A stretch of 64,000 nucleotides of DNA from Macrostomum lignano (Eukaryota). The stretch lies in assembly GCA_002269645.1 (NCBI GenBank), contig NIVC01002473.1, forward strand, positions 107,087 to 171,086, read 5' to 3'. The notes below the pieces were generated by a model. The model did no database searches. It saw only the letters and a program-made list of their open reading frames with translations, and had not been told where the DNA came from. Shown here piece by piece: positions 33,766 through 64,000 of the stretch (position 1 is the first letter of the stretch; each line of letters begins with the position of its first letter). A program made the translations under genes and the position numbers.

Positions 33766-33872
33766 CTGCAAGAGAATCGGAAATCACTCATGAGCAATAA
33801 TTGATGTGGCCTCTAGCTTTTTTCATTTTTAATAATTGTTGTAAAGGTATTGCAATGACCAGGCTGACTTAC

Positions 33873-35281: not shown

Positions 35282-35373
35282 CTTTTAGGAAAATGATGCT
35301 TTTGGTAAAATGATGCAAATGAGGGTACACAAGTGAAAATGAAAATCACAGATTCCAGCCAATATCCTCTTAC

Positions 35374-42632: not shown

Positions 42633-42672
42633 CTGCCGGGGTACGGGGGAGGTGCGACTTATTTTATTTGTT

Positions 42673-43290
42673 ATCGATACATATCGGCGCAATAATTAAA
42701 AAAATCAGTTTTCAATACATATCGGCGAGATATTTGTTAAACCTGCTTTCGATACATATCGGCGGGATACTTTATTAAACCAGTTTTCGATACATTTCGG
42801 CAGGTTAATTATTAAACATGCTTTCAATACATATCGGCGGGATATTTATTAAACCTGCTTTCGATACATATCAACGGGATAATTTATTAAACATGCTTTC
42901 GATACATATCGGTATGCCAATTAATTATTAAACCTGCTTTCAATACATATCGGCGGGATAATTTATTAAACCTGCTTTCGATACATATCGGCGGGATAAT
43001 TATTAAACCTGCTTTCGATATATTTCGGTATGTCAATTATTAAACCTGCTTTCAATACATATCGGCGGGATAATTTATTAAACCTGCTTTCGATACATAT
43101 CGGCGGGATAATTATTAAACCTGCTTTCTATACATATCGGCGGGATAATTATTAAATCTGCTTTCAATACATTTCGGCAGGGTAATTAAGAAACCAATTT
43201 TTTATACATATAGGCGGTGAAGTGATGATTAATGATTTTTTCGATACATATCGGCGTGGTAATTATTAAACTTGTTTTCGATACATATAG
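42673..43290 (+). repeat. ~37-38-bp minisatellite with internal palindrome CGATACATATCG
   Basis: About 16 head-to-tail units with no unique spacers. Confidence 0.92.
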
Positions 43291-43639
43291 ACAGTGTAAC
43301 GTACTATATTATTAAGTTTTTTTGTCAATGCAGTACATAAATAATATTAATTTGACCTTACTTGACCTTTACTAATGGCAAAAAAATCAAATTAAATGTT
43401 TCAAGTTCAGAAATTAAGAATGTTTAGACGAACATAATTGCTGCGCACTGTCCCCAGCTAGTTGTAAATCTATAAAAATAGGTTCTCGCCTTATCTTAAA
43501 TATACAGTAAATTCGCATAGCGCACTATCTGAATTCTGCTGTTCGCTGTGAATGATAAGGGGTGCGCCAAATCAGGATTGATTTATTTGACTATCTCTGT
43601 TTCTAACACAGACCGTGGGACAGACTAGAGCAATTTGAA

Positions 43640-44430
43640 ATTAAATTACCCTCTCCCTCCCCTGTTAACCTCTTCCCACCCTGCCTTGTTACCCTCTCCC
43701 GTTACCCTTTTCTCACCCTCCCCTGTTTTTTTATTAGAGGCAGGGGGCTGTGTGCACCCTGGCGCACTTTAAGCGACATAGGCACACAACCGGCGAGAGG
43801 CATTGCTGCCCATCCCGCCGACTCCCCTGAGCAGGCATACAAGCGAGCGGATACGTACGCAGGCACACACTCACACAGGAGTGTACAGCAACCCTAACTT
43901 TATTTTATCGTTAGGCATGTACACTTCACTGCGCCTTGGGGGTTGGCTCTCAAGGCCGTTAATTGCACGAGCAGAGCCAAGCCGAGATTCCAATTCAGCC
44001 CCAAATTAATGGGACTGCACTTGGAATCGAGCCTAGGTCGCTGGCACACCAGAGCCTGCGCTACCGCTGGGCTACGGCCCCCTTTACCCTCCCCTGTTAC
44101 CCTCATCTCACCCTCCCGTTACCCTCTTCTCACCCTCCCATGTTACCCTCAATGTCCCTCATCTCCCCCTCCCCTGTTACCCTCTTCTCACCATCCCCTG
44201 TTATCCTCTTCTCACCCTCCCCTGTTACCCTCATCTCACCCTCCCCTGTTACCCTATTCTCACCCTCCCCTGTTATCCTCTTCTCACCCTCCCCTGTTAC
44301 CCTCATCTCACCCTCCCCTGTTACCTTCTCACCCTCCCCTGTTACCCTCTCCTCACCCTCCCCTGTTACCCTCTTCTCACCATCCCCTGTTACCCTCTTC
44401 TCACCCTCCCCTGTTATCTTCTTCACACCC
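43640..44430 (+). repeat. 24-bp pyrimidine-rich minisatellite (CCCTCCCCTGTTACCCTCTTCTCA)n, interrupted by a SINE
   Basis: Direct observation. Confidence 0.9.
43726..44083 (-). mobile_element. tRNA-derived SINE family A
   Basis: Reverse complement of 31560-31927. Confidence 0.85.
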
Positions 44431-44464
44431 TGTCTTCCACCCACAAAACATTAGATTATATCAC

Positions 44465-45033
44465 CTCAATTTCGATTTCCTCAGCTCGAATCTTCTGCCT
44501 CTCCTTGGCACCCTGGAGATTATAGGCCAGCTCGGACTCGGCCTTGGCCCTGTTCACTTCCACATCGAAAGCGCCCTTCTGCATCTGGAAGGTCCTGGCA
44601 CTGTCGGCAATTTTCGAGTCCATGTCGTACTTGACATCCATTCTGGCTCGCTGGCAGGACGATTCAACAATGCCGGCGTCTCTCTCGGCTTCGGCCACGC
44701 CAATATCGGCGTCTCTCTTGATAACGGCAGTCTGGGTGCGGCCGAGGCTGTTTAAATAGTCCACCTTGTCGTAGATGTCCTTGATGGTGAAGGACAGAAT
44801 TTCGATGCCCATTTTGCCCACATCCGGTGCGGCCACTTCGCGGACAAGTTCAGCGAATTGGTCACGATCTTTGTAGATGGCCTCGACAGTCAGGGTGCCC
44901 AGGATGGCGCGCAGATGGCCCTCCATGGTCTGCAGGATTGTCTCCTCCATCTCTTGGCGGGACTTGCCCAGAAACTGCTCGCAGGCGGTGGCCAGAATCT
45001 CATCATCTCGCATCACCTTCACTTGGGCGACGC
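44465..45033 (-). CDS. FLOT2: Flotillin-2 exon 4 (SPFH core)
   Basis: ACEQFLGK...EGHLRAILGTLTVEAIYKDRDQFAELVREVAAPDVGKMGIEILSFTIKD; 569 nt, phase 1-0. Confidence 0.95.
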
Positions 45034-45109
45034 CTTTGATTAAAGGGATGCCATTCGTGTCATCTACTGTCGATTCGCTGTTTTTAACATCCCCTCAGAA
45101 CTTTCCCGT

Positions 45110-45580
45110 CTCTACATCCCCTCTGGGTTCTCCCCTCTACACCTCTGGGTTCTCCCCTCTACATCCCTTCTAGGTTCTCCCCTCTCTACATCCCCTCTGG
45201 GTTCTCCCCTCTCTACATCCCCTCTGGGTTCTCCCCTCTCTACACCCCTCTGAGTTCTCCCCTCTCTACACCCCTCTGGGTTCTCCCCTCTCTACACCCC
45301 TCTGGGTTCTCACCTCTCTACACTCCCTATGGGTTCTCCCCTCTCTACACCCCTCTGGGTTCTCACCTCTCTACACTCCCTATGGGTTCTCCCCTCTCTA
45401 CACCCCTCTGGGTTCTCACTTCTCACCTCTCTACACTCCCTATGGGTTCTCCCCTCTCTACACCCCTCTGGGTTCTCCCCTCTCTACACTCCCTATGGGG
45501 TCTCACCTCTCTACATCCCTTCTGTATTTTCCCCTCTCTACATCCCTTCTGTATTTTCCCCTCTCTACATCCCCACTAAA
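45110..45580 (+). repeat. ~26-bp minisatellite (CCCCTCTCTACACCCCTCTGGGTTCT)n
   Basis: Direct observation. Confidence 0.9.
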
Positions 45581-45666
45581 ATCTCCCATTTTCCATACGT
45601 CACTTCCAGTTTAAATCTTATCACTCCCAACCCCAGAAAAATGAATAAAATAAATCAATACCATAC

Positions 45667-45746
45667 CTGTCACTGTCAGAGCAACACCCTCGGAGGTTTC
45701 AACACTCTCACAGCGCGGCTTTAGTGTGAACACCTCCAAAGTTAGT
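45667..45746 (-). CDS. FLOT2: Flotillin-2 exon 3
   Basis: LTLEVFTLKPRCESVETSEGVALTVTG; 80 nt; AG/GT flanks. Confidence 0.9.
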
Positions 45747-45834
45747 CTGAAAAAAATAAACAAAAATTATAGACAAATGCGCTGGACCCACTACATTAAT
45801 ATATTATCAAGTTTAACAATAACTAATTACTCAC

Positions 45835-45916
45835 TTCTGAGTTTGTGTTACAAGCCACCAAGCCCAGCCCCAGCCTCCAATGATGCGACGGACACTCTGG
45901 TCGCCACAGCAACCAC
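45835..45916 (-). CDS. FLOT2: Flotillin-2 exon 2
   Basis: GGCCGDQSVRRIIGGWGWAWWLVTQTQ; 82 nt; AG/GT flanks. Confidence 0.9.
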
Positions 45917-47867
45917 CTTAAAAGTTTGAAGTAATTGATATTATGATTTCAAACTGATTATTTTACTTGTTTGGATTGGATTTGGATTTTAAATTGGCAA
46001 TATTAACTTGGTAATATTGATACTGGCTAAGGGTGAACATAAAAGTTGAGCAAGATATTTGTAAAAATAGTTGCATATATAACAAATTTTAAAATAATAC
46101 TTGTAGATATTTAAAACAAAATAAACATAAAACAAGGTAAAAATGACTAAATTTTGTCTACTACCCTGTTTTCTAACGTTTGTAAAAAGTTATTTTATCT
46201 AAGCCTACCAGTTTGGTCATTTTCTGTCATAAAATGTTCTGATGAAGAAGCTATATATAGTTTTAACACTAAGAACTCTGAATTAAGTATTCAAGAATCA
46301 AGTCCTAATTAGGGGCTAATAATATTGAATTGCAAAAGAGCCTATTGTTCTATTATATATTATATTATATAAGAAACAAAACATATTAAGTTATATAGCA
46401 TGTAACTTATAATACTTATTCAAAAAGGTATATTTTTCTATTCATTTATTTACCATTTATTCATATATTCATAGACTTTGACATGCTATCTGACACTCCT
46501 TCCACTGACATACTATATTTTATTGTAGTTGTTCATTATCTTTAAACAAATAAAATAAAATATAAATTTATTTTAATTCATTGGAGCCTATCTCACAGGC
46601 AAGGACAATCATAAGAGTTAGAGTTTAAAAAAGCATATATTAGATTGGACTTATATCTTTATAAAAAGAGCATATATATTCACTTTTGTTGTACTATCAT
46701 ATAAATGATTGCATGAAGCTGATTGTAAGACAAACTGAAGACATCTATTTAATATAAGATTGATTGCACTAGATAATAACATGAAATCATAGCATAAAGT
46801 TATAGCATATCCAATGTAATATAGTAGCTGAAGATATATGCACCTTCTGACCTTCTTTTATTTTTATCTTACAATCCCATCTTATTATAAAGACACAGTT
46901 AATTTCCATATGAAAGCATTAAAAAAGTACATATTATTATTAGATTTTATTGACTTAAATATTTACAAATAAGTCTATAGATATAGTTTTTAACATTTTG
47001 ATATTGATCAGACTCTAGGCTTATCTTTGAAATGACTAATTGACATTTATTATTAGTAATAACTAGCAATCTAGTACCTTCCTTTGGGGCACACAATAAG
47101 CAAAGAGCCAAAATAAATCTCATTAAAATGATCATAACAAAAGTAAAAATAAAATCATAGGCTTTCAGTTTCACTTGGTTTTACTTGCACTAAATGCTAT
47201 TTTTTGCTTTAAATATTTTGCTTGCAGTAAAAGTATAGAAATAAATACTATTGCTATATAATATTTTTACATACTATTTTGTCAGGGTCCAGATTGTAAA
47301 AGTAGTATGAACAGGAACAAGAATCCTTTTTAGCTAAATATATCAATGTATGCCAAAAAATAGAATGTTTTCCTAAAATGTAAACTTAAAATATATATAA
47401 GGTTTGCCACTTGTGACAACTCAATTGACATTATCATTGTCTATGATATAAGTTTCCTGATAGATATTTTCTAATAAATATTAATTTTTCAAACAAAAAA
47501 ATGAATTTATATTTCAGGTAGCATTCTTTACTATGTCCTATAATACTATATTCAGCTTTAAAATTTAAAAGGCCTAAGCAAAAATTTCTATCCTAAAAAA
47601 GCATTTGACATAAATAAATAGAAAGTATGTCAAATGATGAATTCAGTGGCACCCTTTACAAAACATATTTTGAAAGCAAATGTCTGAGAAAATACAAAAG
47701 GCCATCATGTGACTTCTTCAAGTTTATATTGATGAATTAGTTGCAATTTTAACAGGAGCATCATTTTGTCTCTATAGAGGTTTTTAATGGTGCTGATTTT
47801 AAATTCAAGCTTCTATTTTTGGTAGCTTTAACCCAACTATATATAGCTTAAAACTAACCATCAAGTC

Positions 47868-48275
47868 ATGGGGAATGAGGGTTTTAGGGTAGGGAGATTC
47901 TTTATAGGGATCAATTTTATCAACATAAACTTGAATAGAGGCATGGAGACCTATTCAAGATGGTTTTGATAAGTTCCAGACTTGGGTAGGGGGATAAACC
48001 CTAGGGCCTACCAAAGGTCAATGACCAAATACTAGGACATGGGGAATAAGGGGTTTATAGGTGGGGATCCTTGATAGGAGTTGATTTTATCAACAAAAAC
48101 TTAAATAGAGGCCTAGAGACCTATTTAAGAAAGTGTTGATAAATTCCAGACTTAGGAAAAAGGGATTAATCCTTACAAAAAGGTCAATGACCAACTATTA
48201 GGGTATAGAATAGGATGAAGGGTTTTTGGGTAGGGGATTCTTCATGGAGGTTGATTTTATCAATGCAAACTTGAA
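47868..48275 (+). repeat. ~171-bp diverged tandem repeat, about 2.4 copies
   Basis: CATGGGGAAT...GATTTTATCAAC...GGTCAATGACCAA recurs at ~171-bp spacing. Confidence 0.8.
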
Positions 48276-48984
48276 TATTATAGACATTTATATGATTAAT
48301 TACTTACATCACTAAATCATTCACCAAAAGGTATTAATCTTGACCATAACACAATGGAAAAGGTAGCAATAAATCAGAATGTGGTCAAGATGATTATCAA
48401 TATATCGTAGAAGTAGCAAATTTAAAAAAGAGGAAACCATGATGTAGTAATTATTTGACATTATAAAAAAACTCAATATCAAATTTGATTTAGTTATCTG
48501 TATTCACTAGGGCCTATATATTATAATTTAAAAGTGGTTAATATTACTTGTGATATTTTAATTTTCTATTCACAAAACATGTTATATATTTTTTGTTTAA
48601 AAAATGTTCATTTATAAACACAAAATTTATTAAAACATTTTTGTTCAAATTCTTATTGACATCATAAGGCCTAAAGGGATTAATAAACTGAGGTCACATC
48701 ACATCACCACAGAATGCAGTTTTTTGGAGATTTTTTTTACTTTTTTATTATTTCCAGCATCTTCCAACCCAAGTTTCTGGTGAAAATTACTGAAAAATTG
48801 GAAAATCGAAAGTATTTTATCAACATAAACTTGAAGAAGTCCCAATCATGTGTCCAGAGTAAATGGTGGCAGACAAAATAACTGTAGTGTACACAAAAAA
48901 CAATTATAGCTCAGTGGCTTTAGCCTGACTCACTGACTGACAGATTTTGCTACTGAAAAGTTATATTATATTAGGGGCCTAATC

Positions 48985-49354
48985 AGGGGGGCCGTAGCCC
49001 AGCGGTAGCGCAGCTGCTCTGGTGTGCCAGCGACCCAGGCTCGATTCCAAGTGCAGTCACATTAATTTGGGGTTGAATTGGAATTTCGGCTTGGCTCGCT
49101 TGTGCAATTAACGGCCTTGAGAGCCAACCCCCCAAGGCGCAGTGAAGTGTACATGCCTAACAATTGATAAAGTTAGGGCCGCTGTACACTCCTGTGTGAG
49201 TGTGTGCCTGCGTAACGTATCCGCGCGCTTGTATGCCTGCTCAGGGGAGTCGGCGGAATGGGCAGCAATGCCTCTCGCCAGTTGTGTGCCTATGTCGCCT
49301 AAAAGTGCGCCAGGGTGCACACAACCCCCCTGCCTCTAAAAAAAAAAAAAAAAA
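48985..49354 (+). mobile_element. tRNA-derived SINE family A
   Basis: A and B boxes, poly(A) tail, perfect 13-bp TSD TAGGGGCCTAATC. Confidence 0.9.
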
Positions 49355-49485
49355 TAGGGGCCTAATCCAGTCTAAGAAATTCTGAAAAACAATGAGAAAC
49401 ATTGCAAATTCTAGCCTAGTTTTAAATATTTTTTTCAAATTACGAAAACACTTTAAACGTGAAAGTAATACTCTAACTTACATAC

Positions 49486-49534
49486 CTGAAATTACCAAGG
49501 CTTCATTAGGTCCGACTGTGTGTATATTTCCCAT
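49486..49534 (-). CDS. FLOT2: Flotillin-2 exon 1
   Basis: MGNIHTVGPNEALVISG, 49 nt, GTATGT donor. The five exons sum to 1281 nt (426 aa plus stop). Confidence 0.92.
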
Positions 49535-49854
49535 TTAGGCTAAAAAAGTATTGAAATGAAAAGCTAAAAATCGAAAACGTAGCTTTGCGTTAAACCTAAA
49601 AATAAACCTAAATTATTTGACTACAACCGCAACTTTAATATGTAGTCGTGGGCTCGTCGCAAGTATATATATTGATGAAATTATGTAATTTGAATTATAA
49701 AGTACTCTATTTTGCAAGTCTAAAGCAGAACATGTTTAATATAATTATAATTTAACTAGGTTATTAAAATGATTGTTTAGCTGCAAATTTTACTTAGTAA
49801 ACATTTACTTAAAATATAAAATATTAACTTTGTTTCACTACTATAAAAACGGTA

Positions 49855-50125
49855 AGTAGTATATAAAAAGACGCTTCTAGACCCAGAGCACTTTTTTAAT
49901 GACCGTTTTAAGGGTCTAGAGGGGGGACACGGGGGGTAAATAAAAAAACACATCTAAACACCCTTAACACATCTAATCACCCATAATCACCCCTAACAAT
50001 AAAAATCACTTCCCAACACTTCCAAACACTCCCCAACACCCCCCTCGCGTCCCCCCTCTTAAGACCTTACAAACGGCCATTAAAATAAGGTCTGATCTAG
50101 AAGCGTCTTTTTCTATACTACTACT
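49855..50125. repeat. Fold-back terminal region AGTAGT...ACTACT
   Basis: ~85-bp imperfect inverted repeat at both ends of a 270-bp segment. Confidence 0.8.
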
Positions 50126-50343
50126 CTATAACCCCTTGCCCGCGCCGCAGGCGCGAAGGGTCGGAAAGAATAGAAGCTATTTATAGTCAGCTCACCTACC
50201 CACCCAACATTCCATTTAGACCAGATTTTAGACCAAACAAAACTAGACTATCGTTTTGGTTTTCGTTTTCAAAAATTTGGTCTAAAATCTGGTCTAAATG
50301 GAATGCAGACAATCTTTTTCTGTTACTAAAAATAGAACAAAAA

Positions 50344-50742
50344 ATGACACACGTTACACATATGCAAAATCTGAATGAATTGCAGGTAGGAGACCCAGTT
50401 GAATACCGAGGTGAGGGGCTTTTTGATGTGGTTGGAACAGCAGCAAATTTTGTTAAAGACAATATGGGGCTTATAGGGCAAGCTGGCTCTGCAGCAGGCT
50501 CTATAACCAACGCCGTAAAGGGCGGAATTGAAGCAGCTAGAGCGGCAGAAGAACTAAAGAAATTGAGAGATTTTAACGACACCCTCTCACAAATAAATGC
50601 AATAAAAGATTTAAAGCTGGCACAAGCCGCACAACCAACAGAAACCCCCACGAAAAGCGCACCAATAAGTAATAAAGATATTCAGGATTTTAATAAAATG
50701 TTAAATACTATTAAAGGTGGAAAAGGATTAAAGAAATTTTAA
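50344..50742 (+). CDS. Polinton putative virion core/membrane-active protein
   Basis: YRGEGLFDVVG amphipathic segment, Gly/Ala-rich, C-terminal IKGGKGLKKF. Confidence 0.55.
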   Translation: MTHVTHMQNLNELQVGDPVEYRGEGLFDVVGTAANFVKDNMGLIGQAGSAAGSITNAVKGGIEAARAAEELKKLRDFNDTLSQINAIKDLKLAQAAQPTETPTKSAPISNKDIQDFNKMLNTIKGGKGLKKF

Positions 50743-50752
50743 CAATATAAAA

Positions 50753-51738
50753 ATGGACACAGATAACGACCGCTTATATTTTATAGGAGAAATTGTAGAT
50801 ACTTTAGATCTAGATGATAATAAACATAGCCACACAATGTTAAAAAGATTGGATCGATTAGGTAAAAAGTTTGACTACGACATCGATACATTTAAACTCG
50901 CAGCAAAATATGCACAAGAAGGAAGGCCAATATCCTTTAAGAATCGCGGCAGAAATTATAGGTTGACAGACTCCGATGTGAAATTTTTAATGGAGACTCA
51001 CACTAAAAAGGACGGCGGATTACTACCCATTCTACCGCTTCTTTTAGGACTTGGTGCAGCTGGAGCAGTCGGTTTAGCCGGAAAAAGAATTCATGATAAT
51101 GTAAAACAGCTAGGAGAGTTAAGAGCGAAACAGGGGGAATCTTGCCCCTTGCAGCTTTGCTCCCAATAATTTTTGCAGGAATTGGAGCAGCTGGAGGAGT
51201 TGCTGGCGGAGCAGCTGGAATTGCAAAAGCAGTAAATGACAAAAAAGCTGCGGACGAAAAAGCTAAAAGAGAGGCCGAATTTCAAAGACAGCAAATAACG
51301 CAGGACGCACAATTTAAACAAAAACTTATCGATACAATTAATAGTAGTTCAGCAACAGCAGAGCAAAAAAGAAATGCAGAAGCTAGGTTAGCAGCCGGAA
51401 AAGGTTTACTCTTGCAAGGAACAAATCACGGGAATGGTTTGGTACTAAAAGGAACAACCCAAGGAAGTGGAGTTGTAGCAGATAAACTACATGAATTTGG
51501 TCAAACTTTAGAAAAAACGGGTGAGAAAGCTAAAGGATTTTTTGACAATATTGGGGCTAATTTTAGGCCAGCAGTTCAGAAGATTTTTAATAAATTAGGA
51601 AAAGATTTTAACATCATTGAAAAACACGACGGAAGCGGATTATATCTCGAAATGAGACCAAAAGCAGGTTCAGGAATTTTCTTAAATTCAAATGTTATGG
51701 GAAATGGATTGCTATTACCAAAAGCAGATCTCGAATAG
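50753..51738 (+). CDS. Polinton pX(mu)-like core precursor (one gene split by a 1-nt deletion in the G run at 51133-51137)
   Basis: DGGLLPILPLLLGLGAAG, plus QGGILPLAALLPIIFAGIGAAGG once the frame is restored; repeated GxG-hydrophobic motifs. Confidence 0.6.
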
Positions 51739-51822
51739 GCTCCTGGGGGGAGGGTCTGGACACCAAAAACACAAAATTAAAAAATCAATAATTCAAACAT
51801 TATATAAATTTTATTCTATAAA

Positions 51823-54800
51823 ATGGAAGCAATTTTAGCTCAAATCGACAACCCTGAACTTAGAGCACAATTAATAGCTCAAATCGATGCACAACGAATT
51901 GCCGATAGGGCTGAAATAGAAGCAAGAATTAGGGCAGAAAATGAGATACGTTTAGAAAGACAATTAAATGATATTAATAACCCCCAACCACAAGGACAAA
52001 ATGGAGCTGAAGTAATATATATAGATATAGATATAAATACAAATTATAAAGAATATTTTAAACAAATGAAAGATAAATTAAAGACTATATTAAACAATTA
52101 TACTATAAGGCCAAATAACAAACGACAGCCAATTAAGTATAAAATAGAAGTTGAAACAGAATTTAAAAAACCAAATATTCTTAATGCAAATTCAGAAATT
52201 GAAGTAATAAATAACTTTTCACAAGAATCATATAAAACATTATTATCAATGGGAAATTACAACAATCAATTCGATCAAATAGAAGCTGAGTTTGATGAAT
52301 GGATAGATAAGATGACAGAAAACGGATCTGGGTTTATATTTGTTTCATGCAATTCAGCAACAGTAAAGATTGCACCCATAGAAATTCTTAAAGGACGATC
52401 ACATATGAAGCTCAAATTTAAATCACCTATGATTATAAATCCAGACAATAAAGATAATAAATGTTTATTATGGTGTTTATTAATTCATAAATATCACAAT
52501 CAAGTAGAATCACACATTAATAAAATATATAATTATAGACAATATGAGGATGAAATAATAATGAAAAACATATCATACCCAGTAGCAATAGATGATATAT
52601 ATAAGATTGAAAAAATGAATGGTTTAAATATTAATGTTTTTACAATTGAAGAACCAAAAGATCTAGAAGAAATTCAACAGGTTGATCCAGAATGGTATAA
52701 GAAAAACTGTTATCTTGTTAAGCCAGCAACTGATATAACAGCACCAGATCAAATCGATCTTTTGTACATGCAGCGCGAAAATGAAACACATTATATATAC
52801 ATAAAAGATATTAGTTCTTTTTTAAGAGAAAATAGAAATAGATATCCGCTATGTAGAAATTGTTTTACATTTAAAAAGGATGAAACAGCTCTTAAAAACC
52901 ACCAACGATTTTGTTTAGATCACAAATTTACTAATGCTATAATGCCAGCATCTGAAGATGCAACCCTAAAGTTCCAACAACATTATATGGCAGTTAAAAA
53001 ACCAATAGTAATATATGCTGATTTTGAAGCAACAAATGTTCCCTTAAAAGAATCACAGACGACATCTGATGACGGGGATCATGCAAAGCATGCGACCCTA
53101 CGGGACGAATGCACAAAAAAATTGGCACAACAGTTTCCGAATAGTTATTGTATATATGTACACTCTGTAGCTGATCATATATTTAAATCAAGGATGATTA
53201 CTTACCACGGTAATGATGCAGCTAAGCACATGGCAGAATCATTAGTAAATGTATTTGAATATATTCAAAATCAATATGATAAATTATCAAAAAATATTAA
53301 TATGACAAATAAGGATAGAGACAATTATAAAAATGCAACAAATTGTTTTATGTGCAAAAGACATTTAAGTAAGAATAATAAGATACGAGAACATTGTCAT
53401 CTAACAGGAAATTATCGAGGGGCAGCATGTAGATCATGTAACGCAAAAGAAGGAAAAGGATGTAAGGAAATACCAGTATTTTTTCATAATGGTCCGGATA
53501 TGATTTTCATTTCTTAGTTCGAGAATTGCTTCATTTAGGAAAGGATGAATATGAAATAAATATATTACCTAAAACATCAGAAAATTACATATCAATAACA
53601 TATGGTAAGAAATACTCCCATCTAGTTTTTCTAGATCCTTGAGATTCTTATCAACATCTTTAGCAAATGTTGTTTCATCATTAGTTCCAAAACCATGGGA
53701 TTTAGAAATAGTAAAGAAAAACTTTCCAATACTATTGAATCGTTTCAAAAAGGAAAAACTATCCGAGGAAGAACTAATGCTATTAACTCGTAAGGGCATC
53801 TACCATATGAATATGTAACATCTGAAGACGTATTTTTTCATACCGAATTACCCCCAATTGAAAAGTTTTATTCAACATTATCACAAACAAACATAAGTGA
53901 ATCGGATTATGAACACGCTCAAAAAGTATGGAAATACTTTAATTGTAAAACATTTAAAGATTATCATAATCTATATCTTAAAGCAGATGTTCTCCTATTA
54001 GCTGATGCATTTGAAAACTTTAGGAATCATACATATGAGAATTTTAAAATTGATCCCGCATATTGTTTCAGTGCACCGGGATTAACATGGGCTTGTGGTT
54101 TGAAACATACAGATGTTAAGATTGATTTACTAACTGATCATGATATGTTGTTAATGATTGAGAGAGGAATTCGCGGTGGATTCTCGGGTGTACTAGGAGA
54201 TAGATATACTAAAGTAAATAATAAATATCTACCAAATTATAATAAAAAAGAAAAATCATCATATGTATTATATCTAGATGCAAACAATTTATACGGTGGT
54301 TGTATGAAACAAAAATTACCAATAGCTGATTTCCAATGGGAAGATGACCCCGATTATTACAAAAATATTCCCGAAGGAAGGGGCTGTATCGTAGAAGTGG
54401 ATTTGCAATATACTCGGGAAGCAAAAGCAAAAACATATAAATATCCTTTAGCTCCAGAGCATTGTTCAGTTAATGAAGATGATTTATCACAAACACAAAA
54501 AGATTATCTTAAAGTAGATAATACAAAACATCTAGCAACAAAAAAATTAATATTAAATTTACATGATAAGAAAAACTATGTAGTGCATTATAAGCTTCTA
54601 CAATTTTATGAAAAGCAGGGATTAAAAGTGTCTAAAGTACATCGAACAATATCGTTTATTGAGGAAGATTGGTTAGCTAAATATATTGACTTTAATTCAA
54701 ATCAGAGACAGATGTCAAAAACAAATTTTGAGAAAGATTATTGGAAATTAATGAATAATGCTTTTTATGGAAAAACGGTTGAAAATATTAGAGATAGAAC

Positions 54801-55539
54801 CCAATTCCATTTAGAAAAGGATATTGATAAAGCAAAGAAATATTTCTCAAAACCTAACTTTAAAGACTTTATAAAATTTGATGATAACTTTATGGGTATT
54901 CATATGAGAAATAAAACAACAAAATTTCTTAAACCAATATTTATTGGAATGGTTGTTTTAGATTTTGCAAAGCTAGTAATGTATGAATACTATTATGATG
55001 TTATAAATAAAACATGGCCAGATAACTATCCAATATATGCAGACACCGACAGTTTGGTATTTAAGGTTGAAACAGATGACCGGACGGAGTCCGCGAACCA
55101 AAGGTTCGATGTCTATAAAGATATGGAAAAAATTAAGGATACATTGGATACCTCCGACTATCCGGATAACCATCCTTTAAAATCAGATCAAAATAAAAAA
55201 GTTGTACTTAAAATGAAAGATGAATTAAATAGCAAAATCATAACCGAGTTTATAGCAATAAGATCAAAATGCTATGCATTTAAGGTTTTAGGACAGGAGG
55301 GAGAGGTAAAAAAAATAAAAGGGGTATCAAGAGCAGCAGTAAAAAAGATAACATTTGATGATTATAAAAACGTACTTTTAGATTACCTTAATACAATTGA
55401 AAATTATCATGCTCCACAATATCGATTAAATTCAGATAAGCATCAGATGTTTGTCATCGAGACAGATAAAAAAACATTAAGTCCATTTGATGATAAAAGA
55501 TATTTAGATGATAAAATTAAAACATATCCATTGGTTTAA
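51823..55539 (+). CDS. polB: Protein-primed family B DNA polymerase (three 1-nt frameshifts at ~53493, ~53636, ~53804)
   Basis: IYADFE, FHN.SGYD, RKGIYPYEY (restored), YLDANNLYG, KLMNNAFYGK, YADTDS. Confidence 0.95.
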
Positions 55540-55556
55540 AAGAAGAGATAAAAAAT

Positions 55557-55817
55557 ATGATAAAAGATAAAAAACAAAAAGAAGATATAATAAGTAAATA
55601 TAATGAATACAAAGCGGCAATAAATAATTATTATTACGATTGTGATTGTGAATCCGAATGTGATTGTGAATATAATACATTTCTAGAATATGAAAAAGAT
55701 ATAGATAATTATTATTCAACATTTCCAAAAGAACTTAAAAAATTAAATAAGGAAAAAGTCTTGAATAACTGGAAGAGATTAACAGAAAAATTACTTATCG
55801 GGTCTGTAAAAAACTAA
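55557..55817 (+). CDS. Polinton small hypothetical protein
   Basis: Open ORF directly after polB with an A-rich start context. Confidence 0.5.
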   Translation: MIKDKKQKEDIISKYNEYKAAINNYYYDCDCESECDCEYNTFLEYEKDIDNYYSTFPKELKKLNKEKVLNNWKRLTEKLLIGSVKN

Positions 55818-56150
55818 AGCATGTAATTGTTTGAGCAAATCATTAACTTCAATTTCATATATTATTGAGCACCAATTATCCTCACAGTCGGCAGGGTAAC
55901 TTAAACAATCCTTTATTTTTTTCCTAAGTTTTTTTATTTTTCTAACCAATCTATCTATTTCAATTTCAATTACTATTTCAGCATAAACAATATCTTGTCT
56001 TAAAAAACGTTTTCTTTTATCTATCTCATATCGGATGGGAAACATATCGTCCCCATACTCATGATATTTCTGAGATATAATTATATTTATTTTTTTATTA
56101 ATATCATTAAGTTCACGCTCTTTAGTGATAAGGATTTTTATCGTATCCAT
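55791..56150 (-). CDS. Polinton hypothetical coiled-coil protein
   Basis: AAAATG start; compact packing. Confidence 0.55.
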   Translation of the reverse strand: MDTIKILITKERELNDINKKINIIISQKYHEYGDDMFPIRYEIDKRKRFLRQDIVYAEIVIEIEIDRLVRKIKKLRKKIKDCLSYPADCEDNWCSIIYEIEVNDLLKQLHALVFYRPDK

Positions 56151-56165
56151 TTTCTTATAAAAAAT

Positions 56166-56498
56166 TTAGTCTTCGTCGTCATCCTCCCAAACAGCCGCCA
56201 ATTTTACAGTCCTATCACTCTTTTTATTATTTGTTTGTTTTAGTTTAAATTGCAATCCACCCTCGTTGCAGTATTTCATAACAAACGCTTTAGGTTTATT
56301 AATAACTAAAACAGGAAAATTTTTAACATCATCTCCGCTTAGACATAAAATTTTTTGCCCATCTAATTGTAAAAATATTGATTGAAGCCCAATAAATTTA
56401 ACCTGTCTCAAACATATAATATTATATTCTTTATTCTCCAACATATTGGGTGTGAGATAATTAATCACATTAGAATCGGTTTTGAACCAGCTCTCCAT
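56166..56498 (-). CDS. Polinton hypothetical beta-rich protein with acidic C-terminal tail
   Basis: TAAAAATG start; ends WEDDDED. Confidence 0.6.
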   Translation of the reverse strand: MESWFKTDSNVINYLTPNMLENKEYNIICLRQVKFIGLQSIFLQLDGQKILCLSGDDVKNFPVLVINKPKAFVMKYCNEGGLQFKLKQTNNKKSDRTVKLAAVWEDDDED

Positions 56499-56524
56499 TT
56501 TTAATCTAAAAAAATAACAAAAAA

Positions 56525-56986
56525 ATGAAAGACATTTATGTTTGTAATAAATGTAATGTGACTATGCACAGAGGGCAAACAGCAAACGGAGATATATATC
56601 ATATGTGTTATTCATGTTCTAAAATATATCAATTTGAAAAAACAAAAAAGATTGAAAACTCATATTACTATTTTAAAAACACAATTTTAAGAAATCTTAC
56701 AAGAGACATTTCTGATCCAATTTTAATTCCCGGAAATAATGTTTATTTATATAATAACTTTTTCCATTTAAATAAAGGAAAGGGATTAAGTTCGAAAGAC
56801 TCTGAAAGGATTTTAATTTTAGTTGGATATTATTTCAATTTTCTTATTCGAGAGAATACAAAGTTTATAAGGATAGGTAACATACCTAACGAAATGTTAT
56901 TGAAAAAGTCATTGGAATTTTTATGTATTGATAAAAAATTTAAACCTAGATCAGAAGAGAGTTACCACTTTGGGAAGAATATATAA
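56525..56986 (+). CDS. Polinton hypothetical protein with N-terminal CxxC...CxxC zinc ribbon
   Basis: CNKC...CYSC. Confidence 0.6.
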   Translation: MKDIYVCNKCNVTMHRGQTANGDIYHMCYSCSKIYQFEKTKKIENSYYYFKNTILRNLTRDISDPILIPGNNVYLYNNFFHLNKGKGLSSKDSERILILVGYYFNFLIRENTKFIRIGNIPNEMLLKKSLEFLCIDKKFKPRSEESYHFGKNI

Positions 56987-57003
56987 CATATGCATTAGAA
57001 AAA

Positions 57004-57660
57004 CTAAACAACCTGAAGTTCTACCGCACTTCCTGACCGCGGGCTTTGTGCCCCAGTAGCAATAGTTTCAGGTTCGTAAATGCCTAATGTTTCTATCGGT
57101 GGAGCTTTGGGTTTATCGAGTCTCAACTCTTTTAATTCCATATCGGTAAAAGTTTCAACATCTAAAATTCTATTTCTATCTTTTAAATATTTTTCATATA
57201 ATTCAACCGCGGTTGATAATTCATGAATCGTTATCTCTCCGTCATCCAATATTTTTTGCACATATAAATATAATTGATTTTTATATTGTTTTGCAACATC
57301 TCTTAATGATTTATATTTTTCCTTTCTTTTTTTAAGATATAATTTAATTGCTAAAAGTATTGATAAGTTCCTGATCAATTCAAAACCTGATATTGAGCCA
57401 ATTGAAATACCTAAAAATAATTGAGATAAATTAAGAGTTGGAATAGATTGTAAAATACCTAAAACGATTACACATAACATTGATAAGCTTCCAAATCCAA
57501 TATTGAAAAAGTCCATATTTCTTATATGGTTTGAAACTCTTCTTACTTTTTTAGCATATAAATCATAATCATAATTTATTCGATCAACATTACTTAACAT
57601 CTGACCTTTACGTTGGTTGAACCGGTCGCGTTCCCATTTATCTGCTTCAGATACCGACAT
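57004..57660 (-). CDS. Polinton membrane protein (TM hairpin plus DGEIT..E helix)
   Basis: Hydrophobic hairpin at ~aa 52-108, then KEKY...ILDDGEITIHEL. Confidence 0.65.
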   Translation of the reverse strand: MSVSEADKWERDRFNQRKGQMLSNVDRINYDYDLYAKKVRRVSNHIRNMDFFNIGFGSLSMLCVIVLGILQSIPTLNLSQLFLGISIGSISGFELIRNLSILLAIKLYLKKRKEKYKSLRDVAKQYKNQLYLYVQKILDDGEITIHELSTAVELYEKYLKDRNRILDVETFTDMELKELRLDKPKAPPIETLGIYEPETIATGAQSPRSGSAVELQVV

Positions 57661-57973
57661 TCTCGTCTATTTTTAATAGCACCAAAATGAATTCCCCACG
57701 CTCTTTGGGTATTTGCCCGGAGCTTAATAGGTATTGTATTGGAGTGATTCTTTCTTTTTTCTCCCATTTAAATCCTATTTTCCAAAACTCTTGAAGTATA
57801 ATATGATTTTTTAATAACTTAATTAATTCTTGAAGCTTCTTATTATCCTGAACATTTACAGTACTAAATAAAAATTTGGTATGAGATTTGAATGTTTTTA
57901 TATTTGATTCTTGTTTAGGAATAGGAATAATAACATTATTTTGCCGCATCGATGGAGTTCTACTAAAAGCCAT
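57647..57973 (-). CDS. Polinton hypothetical protein
   Basis: TATAAAATG start (MAFSRTP...) inside the longer track ORF. Confidence 0.5.
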   Translation of the reverse strand: MAFSRTPSMRQNNVIIPIPKQESNIKTFKSHTKFLFSTVNVQDNKKLQELIKLLKNHIILQEFWKIGFKWEKKERITPIQYLLSSGQIPKERGEFILVLLKIDENVGI

Positions 57974-58004
57974 TTTATATAGAAATATTTTATATATAAA
58001 TATT

Positions 58005-60050
58005 TTATATTTGAGTAGGAGGTTTTTCCAAATAAGCAGTAGAGGGAAAAACATAACCAAACGACGTACTACCACATACAACTGCACCACGAATAAAATG
58101 TGCAGCATCCGCTCCACCAGTTCGAGCACCAAAACCCATAAGGGTTCCAGATTTATCTAAAGTTCCCCAAGTTCCACTATCATATGTGAAAACGTTCTGT
58201 CCAATGAGGGTAAAAGAATCACCAGCAACATTGTATGACTGTAATCGGTACCAAACCCTTTGATTTAAAATATTAACTTCAAATAAATGCCAATCACCGT
58301 TATCAATATTAGCATAGGCTACAGTTTGATCCGCATCACTACTAACATCGTTACGAACCGTAGATCCGTCTGATTTTTTATTACTCCAAACAACTCCAAA
58401 CCTATCATGCCACTCACTTGCAAAAACTATCAATCCGGCGTCGGTTGATAATCCAGATCCAAATTCCGATGTTGGACGTTGGTGACAGTATGCATAAAAC
58501 CAAACCGCATCTGCACCATCTCCTGTAGCATTAGCAACTCGGAAAAAGAAAGACGCAGATATATTTTGAAAATGTGTGAAATTGAATTGTAAAGCACCAC
58601 TTACTCCAGAAGTTTCACGAGTAATTCTAGCGCCGTTTTGATAATCGATATAAGAAGCGTCACCAATTAAAGAACCGACTGGATATATATCTCCGGCGGT
58701 TGTTGGATTTTGATATCCAGACCAATTGCAAATTACTGGTTCGAACAAGGCCGCATCAATAGCAGGTATTCCATCCAATTTATTTTTATCGCTTCCAGAC
58801 ATTCTACCATTTGATGTTGGAGTAGCTAGCTGATCTACGTACGCTCGCGGAACTGCAGAAAGTATTTGAGTTGGCCAATTAAGATCTTGAATTTCAACAC
58901 GGTGTTCAAATAATTGTATTTGACGAACCTCGATAGGTTGTGTACCGGTACCACCAGTTGGGAAGAATACGCTATAATATTTCCAAAAATTAGTCGTTAA
59001 ATTAGATAGAGCAAATGATGTTGCTTGAACTGGTGATCCCGACGTAGTTAATGTCGTCCATGAATCGGTAGCAACATTTTTTGCGCGAACCGACCACCCG
59101 AGGGTATCTCAATTGTTTCACTGCCTGTAATTCTTAATTCAAATATTCTTCTATTATAACCTAAAAATTCAAATTGAATTTCCATATTGGTTGTGGTTCC
59201 GGTATTTGGTGACCATTGGGTCGCAAGGCTTCCATCTCCAACTCGAAAAGCTGTGTTGCCATTTTCAGATGCTGTAAGAACAACATCAGGATTTGAAGTA
59301 TTTGATGTAAGCGGCGTGGTAAAAATATCGGCGTCGGTTGCATTAGCTCGCTCATTTACTTGGCCTAGAGTTATCGAGTCTGCGTTCTCTGTTCCAAATA
59401 ATAAATTTGTTAATTTAAAATTATTCATATTAATATTACCACTACGAGTGGCAACTTGATTATCGACATAGTTCTTATCAACCACTGAATCACTAGTTGT
59501 AATTGAAACATTTATAATTCGGTTGTTGCTCATATCTAGGTTTCCGGTTGCGGTGGTTTGAACATAACGTGAATCAGAATCAGTTCGAGAATAAGAATCA
59601 GTTACATCTCTTTTTAAATTTAATCCATTATCAACTTCGGTTTTGGTATAAGAATCGGCTACGTTCCGTTTCAAATTTAATGAATTATCAACTTCGGTTT
59701 TGGTATAAGAATCGGCTGTATTGCGTTTTAAATTTAATGAATTATCAACTCGTTTTGGTATAAGAATCGGCTGTATTGCGTTTTAAATTTAATGAATTAT
59801 CAACTTCGGTTTTGGTATAGGAATCGGCTACGTTCCGTTTCAGATTTAGTGAATCATCTATTTGAGTTTTGGTATAGGAATCTGCAACATTTCTTTTTAA
59901 ATTTAGTTTAGTATCAACTTCACTTTTTTTATAACCTTCATCTTCATTAATATATCGATTATCTCCAAATGTAACACTTATTCCACCAGATGTGCCACCA
60001 CCACCACTACTTGTTGTTCCGTTCCATGAGGGTGTTCCAGAAAATAACAT
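58005..60050 (-). CDS. Fibre-like protein: 19-aa shaft repeats, discoidin/F5-8C-like domain, ConA/L-lectin-like C-terminus (frameshifts ~59750 and ~59100)
   Basis: VDNSLNLKRNVADSYTKTE x~6; NLDMSNNRIIN...KNYVD; AFRVGDGSLATQWSP...EIQF; MSGSDKNKLDGI; GDGADAVWF...DNGDWHLFEV. Confidence 0.65.
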
Positions 60051-60054
60051 TTTT

Positions 60055-60528
60055 TACTGTCTATTTTATAGAGTCTAAAATCGTAGCTCGTAAACTTCGC
60101 ATGCTTTGCATGATACTTAAATACTTCGGGTTTCCTTCGAGTTATTAATTTTATATATAAAAAATACAACGCCGCTTGCCCGCAATAACTTTTATCAAAG
60201 TTTGAAATTGTTCGTGATGATCTCCACATAAACGATTTTTAGTATGATTAAATTTGTCTTTTATTTCCTGTAACGGAGGAAGCGCGTATGAATCAAAAAA
60301 ATAAACAAGTTTAGGTTTGGAATAAACTGCCGACCAATGAACACCATTTTCTTTTGTTGTTTCAATATTAACAATGAAAGATCCATATTGTGGTAAGTCT
60401 TTGATCTCATCTCGCATAACACATCTGAATGGTTTTATTTTTAACTGCCTCGCCCAATTTGTTAATTCGATATTGCTTGTTGTGTCCGTTCCATATCTTT
60501 GTTTAAAATCATCCCACGTCATGGTCAT
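60055..60528 (-). CDS. Adenain-like cysteine (maturation) protease, frameshift ~60201
   Basis: GVHW (His), FFDSY (Asp), Q.FDKSYCG (Gln/Cys, second frame). Confidence 0.85.
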
Positions 60529-60529
60529 T

Positions 60530-60736
60530 TTATGTTCCTGAAAAACTCTTGGTTTTAGTTAGTTTCGTAGGTGTGGGTTTTAACAATTCCTTTCTTATTT
60601 TATCAGCTTGTAACTGCCTTAATTTTGCTAGTTCTAGTTCGTAATTATCTTCAGCTTTTTTAACTTTTTCTGATTGTTTTTTTATTAAATTATTATTATC
60701 GTGCTTTGCACGCGAACATGTTGTTCGATTACCCAT
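60530..60736 (-). CDS. Small basic protein with MGN..C N-terminus
   Basis: TAAAAATG start; lies between penton and protease. Confidence 0.55.
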   Translation of the reverse strand: MGNRTTCSRAKHDNNNLIKKQSEKVKKAEDNYELELAKLRQLQADKIRKELLKPTPTKLTKTKSFSGT

Positions 60737-60739
60737 TTT

Positions 60740-61550
60740 TACTATAGGAAACGGACAAAGTCCGATACCTGTAAACTGTTTTATACGTAAAATTATTGTT
60801 ATTGACTGCCCACCAAAACTTATTAATCTATCGCTTTCATCTACAATCCTAATATAAATTGATTGAACTATATTGATTTAAAGGTAATATATTGGGGTTT
60901 GGGTGCAACAATCATTTTCTCTCCAATTGGAACAGCAAGAAATGGGATTGAATAAATAATTCCACGTTGAACCAAAACTCCGTTATCGTCTGTTATATAA
61001 CCACCGTTTGAAATGTCGGTTGTTATATTAATTGTATTTACTCCACCCTCTATATTTCCAACTGTATCACCGGTGCTTGATGTGGTAACTATTCGGGAAT
61101 TAAATCCAAGTATGGTTCTGAGTGAATTTGCAATTGTGAAATCAACCTGATATCCGGATCCTAGTGATAGTGTGAATCTGCCAGACGGTAAATCAACACC
61201 TATAACAATTGCTCCTGCTACCCAATCACCATTAGTTGTTAATTCTCCTTCTATATAAGCATTCAAATCAGTATAGCTATACGCTCCTGGGTTAACGCTA
61301 AATGTTGTCCAATTGGCTCCGGAATCTTTAGAATATCTAAATTGATTATTTGTTGCATTAATTAATTGAGGCATGTTGAAAACCGAAAATAGTATTAAAC
61401 CTATTTGATAACTTAGGCTTTGATCAAGTTGTAATGGATCGCGCAATTGAATCCGTTGCTCGCTGGTTGTCATTATAAACTGTAATGTTGTACTAAATTT
61501 TGAATTAGTTCGATCTACCAATTGTTTTATAGTATTAAATTTGTAGTCAT
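60740..61550 (-). CDS. Minor capsid protein (penton), frameshifted near both ends
   Basis: NNQFRYS...PGAYSYTDLN, LGF, INITTDI, IIYSIPF; C-terminal IYIRIVDESDRLISFGG in a shifted frame. Confidence 0.75.
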
Positions 61551-61552
61551 TT

Positions 61553-62402
61553 TTATAGTGGGAAATTAATCGACGAAGTCGCGTTCCGCGGAACGATCGA
61601 ACGAAGTCGCGTGCTATGTCTCTCTTCCTCATTATCTTCTTTATCAAATTTGTTAAAATTCTATGTTTCCTTTCTAACCTCGGATTGATATAAATATGTT
61701 TGTATTGGCTATCATCCCAAATTTTTTTACACATACTTTTAAATGGTTTTGCATCCAATCCGGGATTAAATCTAGCGTGAATATTTTGTAGATCATAGTT
61801 ATCTAAATCAAACATTACACAACAGCTAGCATTCTTTTTTATAATCGATTCTAATTCTCTAAAGGATTGAGTAAGATAAAAGCTCCAATTCCATCTCCTC
61901 TACCACTAACAAAAATTTCCTTTTGCAATTCTTGATCACCGTCATTAATACAATCATCAAAAATAATTAGTGTTTTATCATGTTTTGGAATTTGATCATA
62001 GGCTAATCGGGTTGATACTCTAACAGTTGGGCGCGATCGGACGAAGTCCGCGACCCTTCGGGCGATCGGTGATGTTTTCTGGCTGTTGTGCCATTGTTTT
62101 ACATAAATCCTCAATGTCTGCTAGATTAAATCGCGGTTCGTCATCATCCTCATATTGCTCATATGCTCTTAACATTCTAAACAAGACATCTTTTTTTAAT
62201 TTGTTTTTTAATCCATGTTTAAGAAATTCATAATATTTTATTCTAGGTTTATTAGTATAAATTATTAAATTATTATAGTCTAACATTCCATCTGTTGTTA
62301 ATAAATCGTAAACAAAGTGTGTTTTTCCTTTACCTGATCCTCCGATTACTAAACAAAGAAAAGGATCATTTGGAAATATTTATCGTGTTTTGCCTTTACC
62401 AT
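61553..62402 (-). CDS. A32/FtsK-like DNA packaging ATPase, frameshifted
   Basis: Walker A GGSGKGKT (62310-62350), Walker B LIIFDD, SGRG arginine-finger region, .SQS-like motif C. Confidence 0.85.
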
Positions 62403-62453
62403 TTTTAAAGAAATAATTTAAATAGGCGCGACGGTCGGAGACCTGCACTCATT

Positions 62454-63951
62454 TTACAGCGGCGCGTCCCGAACAATCGTGCCATCAGCTTTAGCAATTG
62501 ACATATATTCCTCTAGAAACAATACGTGGGCGTCAAGTGCCTGATTACCGGTTTTATTAATCTCTAACATATAATTAAGTCCAATATTGGCTACGTTTTC
62601 TTTCTGTGCCGTTAGATCATAAACAACCACTGGATGAATGTTTAGAAACTCTGTGGTGTGTACTGAGGGACGGCATACGCTTCATTTTTGGCATAATCTT
62701 GATAATATTTTATAAAATCATTAACATTATTATTTGCAATATTAAATTTAGGGTCTTTAACGGATAATATTGATCATCAACCTGCAGGCCGGATAATATT
62801 GATCATCAACCTGCAGGCGGATATTCTGAACATTAAACTCGTTAATTGCAGCAACTGCGTTGTCTGTTGCGGTGGCTGCTTGTCTGCTATGGCACCGGAT
62901 TGAAGCCAATATAAATCCCCATTTGCTCTTTTACTCCTTCTATTTGTTATCTTAAACAAACAAAAATATATCTCACCCGACGTTTTGATGTCAGTATTTG
63001 CCACTGGAATGAATCCTGATTGTTATTAATGGTTCGCATAAAGTGTCTACGATTCAAATAAAATATTTCCTGATCATGCGTTAACTGATTATCGATGTGT
63101 TTTAAAAGGGGGCTGTTACCTCAATAGTTGGTACGACTAATTGAATTGAATCTATACGAACTGCTATATCGGTTGAAATTGAGGTTCCATAAAGTATCCT
63201 AGGCTGATATCCACCAGATATTTGCAACTGTATCCCAAATTTTAATCCTTTCCATACCCGATTTGGTGAGAAAAACCCAAATAGTGGAAAGATTGAAAAG
63301 TCCTGCTCATATGCTGTTGCTGTGGTTAAAACCGCGACTGGGAATTTATTCTGACGATCTATAAAACCAGTATTAATATCTTTTGTATTAGTCATAGTGG
63401 TTACAACTGGAACTATGTTTGTATTAAGGTAAACAATTAGCGCTGCAGTATCTGCACCGGCTGCGTTTTGTACATTAGGGTAAAACTACTGCTTGCCCGT
63501 TACCTTTATCCGGCATCCACCCAACATTATCACCAAACTTGTTTTGATAAATAAGTATAATTTAAATGTTTCAAAACTCCATTAATCTCTGCGGGGTTTG
63601 ATGATGTCTCAAACCTCAGCACCATTAACAGTTAGTTGAGCTTGGGAAAAACATTTATAAAACCAATCATTTTCAATTATTATTCCGGATCGATCTGCGA
63701 TATCTCCGCCTGCAAGAGCAGTTCCATCATTTCTAGTATACAACCATCTAACGCGGAAAAACGCATTTTTCATATCCAATATAGTGTTGGTTGCGCCGAT
63801 GTCAAAAGTTACCGTTCCAGTAGTAAAGTTATTTGAATTATCACTTGTTGGTAGGGTATAATTTAAATCTTTTGGCTCTGACCTCATTAATATACTGTCG
63901 GTGCTTTTTGAAATGAAATTTATCACTCCACATAGTTTTTGTTTCAGCCAT
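62454..63951 (-). CDS. Major capsid protein (double jelly-roll, Polinton type), multiple frameshifts
   Basis: TFDI...LDMKNAFFRV, FSQAQLTVNGAEV, IFPLFGFF...GLKFGIQL, HPVVVYDLT; position next to the ATPase. Confidence 0.7.
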
Positions 63952-64000
63952 TTTTTTAAGCTTAAAAAAGTTTTTTATGTTAAAAAAATGAGTCAATTTA

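Follow-up and report, generated by a model that had tools for sequence, protein, structure and literature searches.

A probable Polinton (adintovirus-like) provirus with a complete but frameshifted virion gene set upstream of flotillin-2 in Macrostomum lignano

Background

Polintons are replicated by a family B DNA polymerase of the protein-primed kind (pPolB) that primes on a terminal protein; a double jelly-roll (DJR) major capsid protein (MCP) and a penton form the capsid, an A32 ATPase packages the DNA, a protease of the Ulp1 family matures the proteins of the virion, and genome insertion is the task of an rve integrase (PMC11161782). Such elements are common, as more than 22,000 integrase-linked pPolBs in eukaryotic assemblies (10.1101/2023.08.22.554363) and 4,862 polintovirus elements in corals (PMC11131425) testify. 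Among vertebrate Mavericks, 96% of the copies are defective and 5'-(AGT)2, that is AGTAGT, is the commonest end motif, and Polinton virions are reported as unobserved in animals (PMC8097293), while for the MELD viruses lectin and fibre genes as well as integrase-free forms are on record (PMC8502044; PMC11071296). Herein we describe an element of this kind at the right end of a window of 64,000 nt, which is the whole stretch of DNA analysed (Macrostomum lignano, contig NIVC01002473.1, positions 107,087 to 171,086 of the forward strand; window positions are used throughout). The left 14 kb of the element lie within the window, at 49855-64000. With a probability of roughly 0.78, we read it as a Polinton (adintovirus-like) provirus upstream of an animal flotillin-2 gene, whose complete virion gene set and pPolB are all frameshifted, and which is likely one of tens of integrated copies in a young family.

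Results

Gene content and capsid genes

An earlier note, made from the sequence alone, had described a Polinton/adintovirus-like element with a full virion module in a compact, intronless block, and the gene inventory that it gave is upheld, namely pPolB, core-like proteins, fibre, adenain-like protease, penton, A32-like ATPase and MCP (Table 1). Pieces of viral open reading frames (ORFs) fill about 97% of 50344-63951, and nothing there suggests introns. On the plus strand, two or three core-like ORFs come first, followed by the pPolB on the same strand and the small ORFs, and then by a minus-strand block in the order hydrophobic ORF, fibre, protease, small ORF, penton, ATPase and MCP, where the MCP is complete and has its start codon 50 nt short of the window end. 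The gene set together with the AGTAGT end and the host context supports an endogenous, capsid-encoding element of the Polinton/adintovirus-like type. The module is full in the sense of a complete set of genes but it is not intact, because every hallmark gene is frameshifted. What has to be given up is the view of the block as AT-rich and distinct from host DNA: the GC content of the element (32.8%) is low only against the first 46 kb of the window (43.1%), whereas the adjoining intron at 46001-48970 is lower still (27.8%), so that AT-richness is ruled out as a boundary marker. No DNA similarity was found between the element and the first 49.8 kb of the window, and an Rfam search of 46000-64000 returned 0 matches.

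For the MCP, a piece of 127 aa matched two proteins among 1.84 billion representatives, and the profile of those two found six relatives among 8000 candidates scored, five of them unnamed; one of the six has a DJR Pfam domain and one is named from Lottia gigantea. The window MCP aligns over its full length with the relatives P0121-P0123 at 44-50% identity. It does not itself match PF21738, although two more distant relatives (P0125 and L014) do. The fold that the earlier note presumed was put to structure prediction on the relative P0121, and it stood. The model (14-row alignment, pLDDT 63.8, pTM 0.67) matched the MCPs of mavirus, iridovirus, Sputnik and PBCV-1 in Foldseek (E 1e-11); the top 15 rows of a wide structural search were all DJR capsid or scaffold proteins, led by the faustovirus MCP (Z 21.1, rmsd 3.6, 325 aligned); and in BFVD an adintovirus protein ranked third at 10% identity. 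The predicted DJR type of the window MCP is in this way confirmed on an intact relative of about 50% identity.

As for the other virion genes, the model of the window's own 196-aa penton fragment (pLDDT 77) has pentons as its five best structural matches (Z 9.7 to 6.1, rmsd 2.2-3.3, about 100 aligned, residues 37-143), and the best Foldseek match has an E of 0.009, with none below 0.001. The ATPase fragment reaches Pox_A32 at E 0.008, under the Pfam cut-off, and it has a homolog, an A32 ATPase, whose own score is E 4e-8. The protease as a single query did not find adenain, but the profile of its 6-sequence family matches adenain 1avp at E 3.4e-4; the His and Asp are present and invariant in the family alignment.

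Frameshifts in this copy

Compared with intact relatives, the pPolB carries 3 frameshifts (about 53500-53800), the MCP 9, the ATPase 2-3, the penton 1-2 and the protease 1, and the frame listing adds two more for the fibre and one for the core region. The sum is about 20, and the alignments show no in-frame stop. The copy as assembled encodes no full-length hallmark protein, and with so many frameshifts the assembled sequence gives no support for calling this copy potentially reactivatable. Homopolymer errors were rejected as the cause of the breaks, since the longest runs there are no longer than at random (mean 3.89 against 3.85). In four runs, the contigs of the family show 131 small gaps relative to this copy and the long ones are gapped in the broken stretches, which leaves two origins for the breaks, mutations that only this copy has or errors of the assembly.

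Host flank and family copies

The flotillin-2 gene (42132-49534, minus strand) is recognised by one of its downstream exons, which matches flotillin-2 at E 1.7e-8. The public run X14 contains a spliced contig in which exon 1 leads directly into exon 2, the intron being removed. The end of the element falls 321 nt upstream of the ATG inside a CpG-rich stretch, and thus the insertion may touch the flotillin-2 promoter. In the intron at 46001-48970 the observed/expected ratio of CpG is 0.05 compared with 0.91 in the first 46 kb, from which we infer gene-body methylation of the invertebrate type. At the junction, a contig of run X6 with single-copy depth (50.7) spans 49679-49881 with zero differences, and it stops at the point expected of a single-copy contig that reaches a repeat.

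More than half of the sequence words are contained in 20 of the 24 listed runs, which come from 7 studies (2015-2024). In X1 the contig depth is 5.6-11.2 for the flank (five listed) and 273-397 for the element (three listed), and in X6 it is 39-62 for the flank (six listed) and 1470 and 214 for the element (two listed), so that in the listed contigs of both runs the element is roughly 30-40 times deeper than the flank, except for one X6 contig at only 4 times. Long contigs diverge by 0-2.5% from this copy (for example 5 letters in 1649 and 23 in 1567), there are 488 variant sites across the family contigs, and some contig joints leave out 2.5 and 10.4 kb, though they are weak, the shorter side having 27-31 nt. 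All this points to many copies, some of them internally deleted, and would agree with a family that is young and has tens of integrated, nearly identical copies. The even coverage of the element in X14 could be expression or carried-over multi-copy DNA, since both would look the same. In the literature on free-living flatworms a description of such an element was not found, which is weak evidence.

Left terminus

The AGTAGT at 49855 is the 5' end motif of Polintons, and the terminus that it opens merits attention. In fact, 49855-50122 can fold back on itself with imperfect arms of about 83 nt around a loop of about 100 nt, the first 27 nt being 96% complementary, and none of 200 shuffles folds equally well. 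Both arms begin with AGTAGT, so the terminal motif occurs again, inverted, 268 nt inside. This inner copy is absent from all five AGTAGT-type ends found among 162 locus ends, and a literature search on such a self-folding Polinton terminus listed no description of it. A separately inserted miniature inverted-repeat transposable element (MITE) was considered for the 268-nt hairpin and rejected, as a flanking duplication is not visible; the fold-back could be either a duplicated origin or a MITE-like relic of an end rearrangement. Moreover, in X14 and X20 one contig starts at 50133 and another departs from the window sequence at 50160, both at family depth, which suggests a terminal inverted repeat (TIR) of about 308 nt that is present at two ends of the element. 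The self-folding terminus bears on how Polinton ends get primed and freed for integration.

Polymerase and its placement

The pPolB, in two main pieces, keeps the Exo I-III, Pol A-C and KxY motifs together with an EndoVII insertion (Pfam, E 8e-7); its profile matched EndoVII and zinc fingers in the PDB and no polymerase. Among the longer proteins 2557 homologs were found, and the best 120 of the 2557 are 40-57% identical. In a FastTree tree of the polymerase domain with a midpoint root (125 of 181 sequences were long enough, 19 short matches were dropped and 56 of the broad group were thinned out), it is sister to 40 unnamed sequences (support 0.90), the nearest at 0.97 substitutions per site, and the named cnidarian pPolBs stand at about 1.7, outside its clade of 49 sequences. 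Sequences of this clade fall into clusters with as many as 92 members, on contigs that reach 5 Mb, which is the pattern expected of endogenous elements in multiple copies. The window pieces do not match PF03175 and the clade member P0016 matches it weakly (55 bits), which, as far as this one profile can tell, fits a pPolB of the divergent (Beta-like) type. The lineage is undescribed in a modest sense, given these unnamed pPolBs and the unnamed MCP relatives, and in nothing beyond that; it looks like an unnamed lineage within a well-known kind of endogenous virus. Close relatives are counted in dozens for the pPolB and are very few for the MCP; this fits module swapping, which has been reported for such viruses (10.64898/2026.10.13.758929; 10.1101/2023.08.22.554363), but the limits of the searches may explain it too.

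In IMG/VR a single query found one distant pPolB locus and alignment queries found none, and a collection of metagenome-assembled genomes (MAGs) gave 51 loci, whose best segments are mostly 36-48% identical and none nearer than the metagenome matches. Several observations were made on relatives in passing. In two close pPolB relatives (P0018 and P0035) the polymerase domain contains a LAGLIDADG intein, a possible hint that some of the clade has unicellular hosts. The loci L082-L132 are Polinton-type pPolB contigs inside 'bacterial' MAGs, probably eukaryotic or viral contigs binned in error, and several of them (L110, L118, L131) have paired inverted integrase copies. Another related Polinton encodes a poxvirus intermediate transcription factor domain (L049:3898-5064, E 2e-20) and a PLA2-integrase fusion.

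Integrase

The earlier note saw no integrase in the 14 kb shown, and a profile from nine related integrases likewise found none in the six frames of 49855-64000, where the element runs off the window. The same profile matches 8 of the 10 related loci of at least 10 kb (6 of these 8 are among the nine loci that built it) and 9 of 17 further loci of at least 8 kb. The family's integrase is most likely to be found to the right of the MCP, outside the window.

Fibre, core-like genes and hydrophobic ORF

The fibre-like gene has repeats of 57 nt (19 aa), and its shaft matches phage tail-fibre profiles (E 4e-6). For the C-terminal head there is a lead only, a legume-lectin-like domain with an Atlas score of 0.89, under the bar of 0.9. 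No match of the fibre was found among PDB sequences, and with the fibre of L049 it shares weak repeats only. The two overlapping frames at 50753-51738 are likely one broken gene, which has two motifs like those of protein X (mu) as well as recurring GxG-hydrophobic motifs; it reaches Adeno_PX at E 0.0013, under the cut-off, and an ORF of L014 at E 3e-8. The core-like role of the ORFs at 50344-51738 is putative. The hydrophobic ORF is weakly related to ORFs that related elements carry in the same module (E 6e-5 to L023; probability 76%), and it may correspond to the GasderminX accessory gene of the Beta adintoviruses. For this ORF the homolog search was blank, Atlas gave unnamed clusters at low recognition, and no gasdermin was among its PDB matches; matches to FtsH there were taken as chance.

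Table 1. Features of the element and the adjoining host exon (window positions)
Feature	Position	Strand	Basis or remark
Flotillin-2 first coding exon	49486-49534	-	ATG 321 nt from element end, head to head
Left terminus, AGTAGT start, self-folding	49855-50122	.	fold z -13.1
Putative left TIR, about 308 nt	49855-50162	.	contig boundaries in X14/X20
Second hairpin, perfect arms of 30 nt	50208-50305	.	follows the fold-back
Core-like ORF (putative role), 132 aa, Gly/Ala-rich	50344-50742	+	no Pfam match
Core-like gene (putative role), two overlapping frames	50753-51738	+	Adeno_PX sub-threshold; L014 ORF match
Protein-primed-type family B DNA polymerase (pPolB), EndoVII/HNH zinc insertion	51823-55539	+	motifs, homologs
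Small ORF	55557-55817	+	no significant Pfam match
Small ORF	55791-56150	-	no significant Pfam match
Small ORF	56166-56498	-	no significant Pfam match
Small ORF	56525-56986	+	no significant Pfam match
218-aa ORF with hydrophobic helices, candidate membrane-active	57004-57660	-	weak kinship to syntenic ORFs
Small ORF	57647-57970	-	ORF listing
Fibre-like gene, three frame pieces	58005-60050	-	repeats, tail-fibre profiles
Adenain/Ulp1-like protease	60100-60528	-	family profile; frameshift before catalytic Cys region
Small basic ORF, 68 aa	60530-60736	-	ORF listing
Minor capsid (penton) protein	60776-61540	-	structural matches; frameshift(s) near 3' end
A32-like packaging ATPase	61639-62420	-	Pox_A32; homology to A32 ATPase
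Major capsid protein (MCP), whole, frameshifted	62454-63951	-	relatives P0121-P0123; structure of P0121

Neighbouring sequence

Elsewhere in the window, a SINE-like repeat of very high copy number lies at about 48985-49345, with copies near 31584-31911 and 43738-44063; it ends in a poly(A) tail, has a target duplication of about 14 nt and a presumably tRNA-like head, and gave no Rfam match. On the plus strand, 2700-32508 holds at least 12 tandem copies of a domain of about 150 aa, apparently one exon each, two of them identical and 9935 nt apart; the domain presumably resembles F-type lectin/discoidin. The long ORFs in two frames at 33813-35833 (minus strand) presumably encode a Mab-21/cGAS-like nucleotidyltransferase, and an intronless, GC-rich ankyrin-repeat ORF of 297 aa lies at 36888-37781 (minus strand). 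A fragment at 10530-11114 (plus strand), which presumably resembles the C-terminal part of an LTR-retrotransposon integrase, is 39 kb from the element and is unmatched by the Polinton integrase profile. Several MITE-like inverted-repeat pairs about 500-600 nt apart and long GATA/GACA microsatellites are seen in 19908-29987.

Discussion

A functional member of the family would copy its linear genome from the AGTAGT ends, starting by protein priming, its A32 ATPase would pack this genome into a capsid of DJR protein and penton with a putatively lectin-tipped fibre, its core proteins would be matured by the adenain, and integration would be carried out by an rve integrase, most likely encoded right of the MCP beyond the window. 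The family may have spread recently through such a virion cycle or by intracellular copying.

Several points weigh against the reading as a provirus of a young integrated family. The depth of a contig does not give a copy number, and it could also be raised by free viral DNA. The X6 contig that crosses the junction has 27 nt on the element side, below the bar of 31 nt, and X6 is possibly the source of the assembly itself; the junction, whose lack of support the earlier note had named as a danger, is thereby crossed at single-copy depth and yet falls short of that bar. Integrase, right TIR and target-site duplication are none of them seen within the window, and the relative L009, apparently a complete TIR-bounded Polinton-like genome of 13.2 kb (L009:1-13235) with pPolB, ATPase, MCP, penton and fibre, has no integrase ORF. 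The DJR fold is seen on P0121 and not on the broken window gene, and the Beta-class placement comes from the weak PF03175 match only.

It might be supposed that free virus or contaminant DNA has been mis-joined to a host contig, as no contig bridges the junction with 31 nt to both sides. This is very improbable, because the join is exactly at the AGTAGT terminus and a contig of single-copy depth crosses it, the depth ratio of the element is similar in runs of different studies and years, and there are hundreds of variant sites (40 shown and 448 more) besides the internally deleted forms. Another question is whether the frameshifts are largely long-read assembly errors in a poorly polished repeat, which would leave the locus much less decayed than it reads, and we regard this as a serious contender, a little short of even odds. 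About 20 frameshifts with no aligned in-frame stop are unusual for neutral decay of AT-rich genes, and long family contigs have in places about as many gaps as letter differences, for example 5 letters and 3 gaps in X20 record 17, over the stretch of the three pPolB breaks, and 3 letters and 4 gaps in X14 record 14. However, the single-copy flank contigs of both X1 and X6 show 0 gaps over about 2 kb, the breaks lack any enrichment in homopolymers, and as contigs drop rare variants, private mutations of this copy would look alike.

It is also conceivable, though unlikely, that the family has no integrase of its own and is a MELD/PLV-type virus of about 15 kb, which integrates in trans or by host repair or exists partly as free linear DNA. 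The complete MCP so close to the window end, the presence of only core genes between the left end and the polymerase, the TIR-bounded L009, the integrase-free MELD viruses reported by Starrett et al. (PMC8502044), and the X14 and X20 contigs, which come from two studies and both break off precisely 280 nt beyond the end of the window, like a shared repeat boundary, all speak in its favour. Yet the X14 depth is 47.5 at the putative other TIR and 70.6 for the MCP-start contigs, so further sequence may intervene; most long relatives carry rve, and L006 in the nearest pPolB clade has an rve fragment; and an integrase of its own is the simplest explanation for a family that is young and of high copy number. 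Quite improbable in our view is the bolder proposal of a recently amplified, integrase-free, Polinton-like germline virus of about 15 kb, whose ends have a second inverted AGTAGT origin on the 268-nt fold-back, with a lectin-tipped fibre and an MCP lineage of few unnamed contigs. If it were true, the inverted origin would provide an alternative replication start or integration in trans.

To sum up, we favour a frameshifted Polinton provirus of a young family. With tens of copies, a complete virion module and an animal sequenced by at least 7 studies, the family is a place to look for particles, transcripts and piRNAs, while the commonness of the class and the broken state of this copy limit its significance.

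Comparison with known systems

Membership in the Adenoviridae is ruled out by the A32-type ATPase and by the place in host DNA beside flotillin-2. The element resembles them in its adenain-like protease, protein-X-like motifs, penton, fibre and protein-primed polymerase, but it has an A32 ATPase instead of IVa2, an MCP of about 490 aa and a chromosomal location, and there is no close sequence kinship. With the vertebrate Mavericks (PMC8097293) it has in common the 5'-(AGT)2 ends, intronless modules in opposite orientation, a TIR (putative here) of a few hundred nt and the defective state found in 96% of those copies; it differs by an invertebrate-like host context and a fibre, and the available text on Mavericks mentions no self-folding terminus. 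The coral polintoviruses (PMC11131425) and the cnidarian P0080 and P0081 share the EndoVII insertion, with pPolB identities of 42-44%, though P0080 and P0081 are about 1.7 substitutions per site from the window pPolB. The gene neighbourhood is shared with the metagenomic L014 and L023, whose proteases are 37-49% and pentons about 28% identical and whose MCPs are detectably related; the L014 order of polymerase, transmembrane (TM) ORF, fibre, protease, penton, ATPase and MCP is that of the window element, but both are partial contigs and L014 has its pX-like gene between ATPase and MCP.

Among the described groups, it resembles the Beta adintoviruses/Polinton group 1 (Polintoviricetes; PMC8502044) by the divergent PolB with a weak or no PF03175 match as well as by the adenain, FtsK/A32 ATPase, hexon, penton, fibre and pX-like motifs, the animal host and the degraded endogenous copies. 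It appears to be set apart from them by the 14 kb without an integrase, by an MCP with only 6 relatives among 8000 scored, and by the core genes between the left end and the polymerase. Capsid-encoding Polintons are widespread in invertebrate genomes, and the window element appears to be an unnamed lineage of that known kind.

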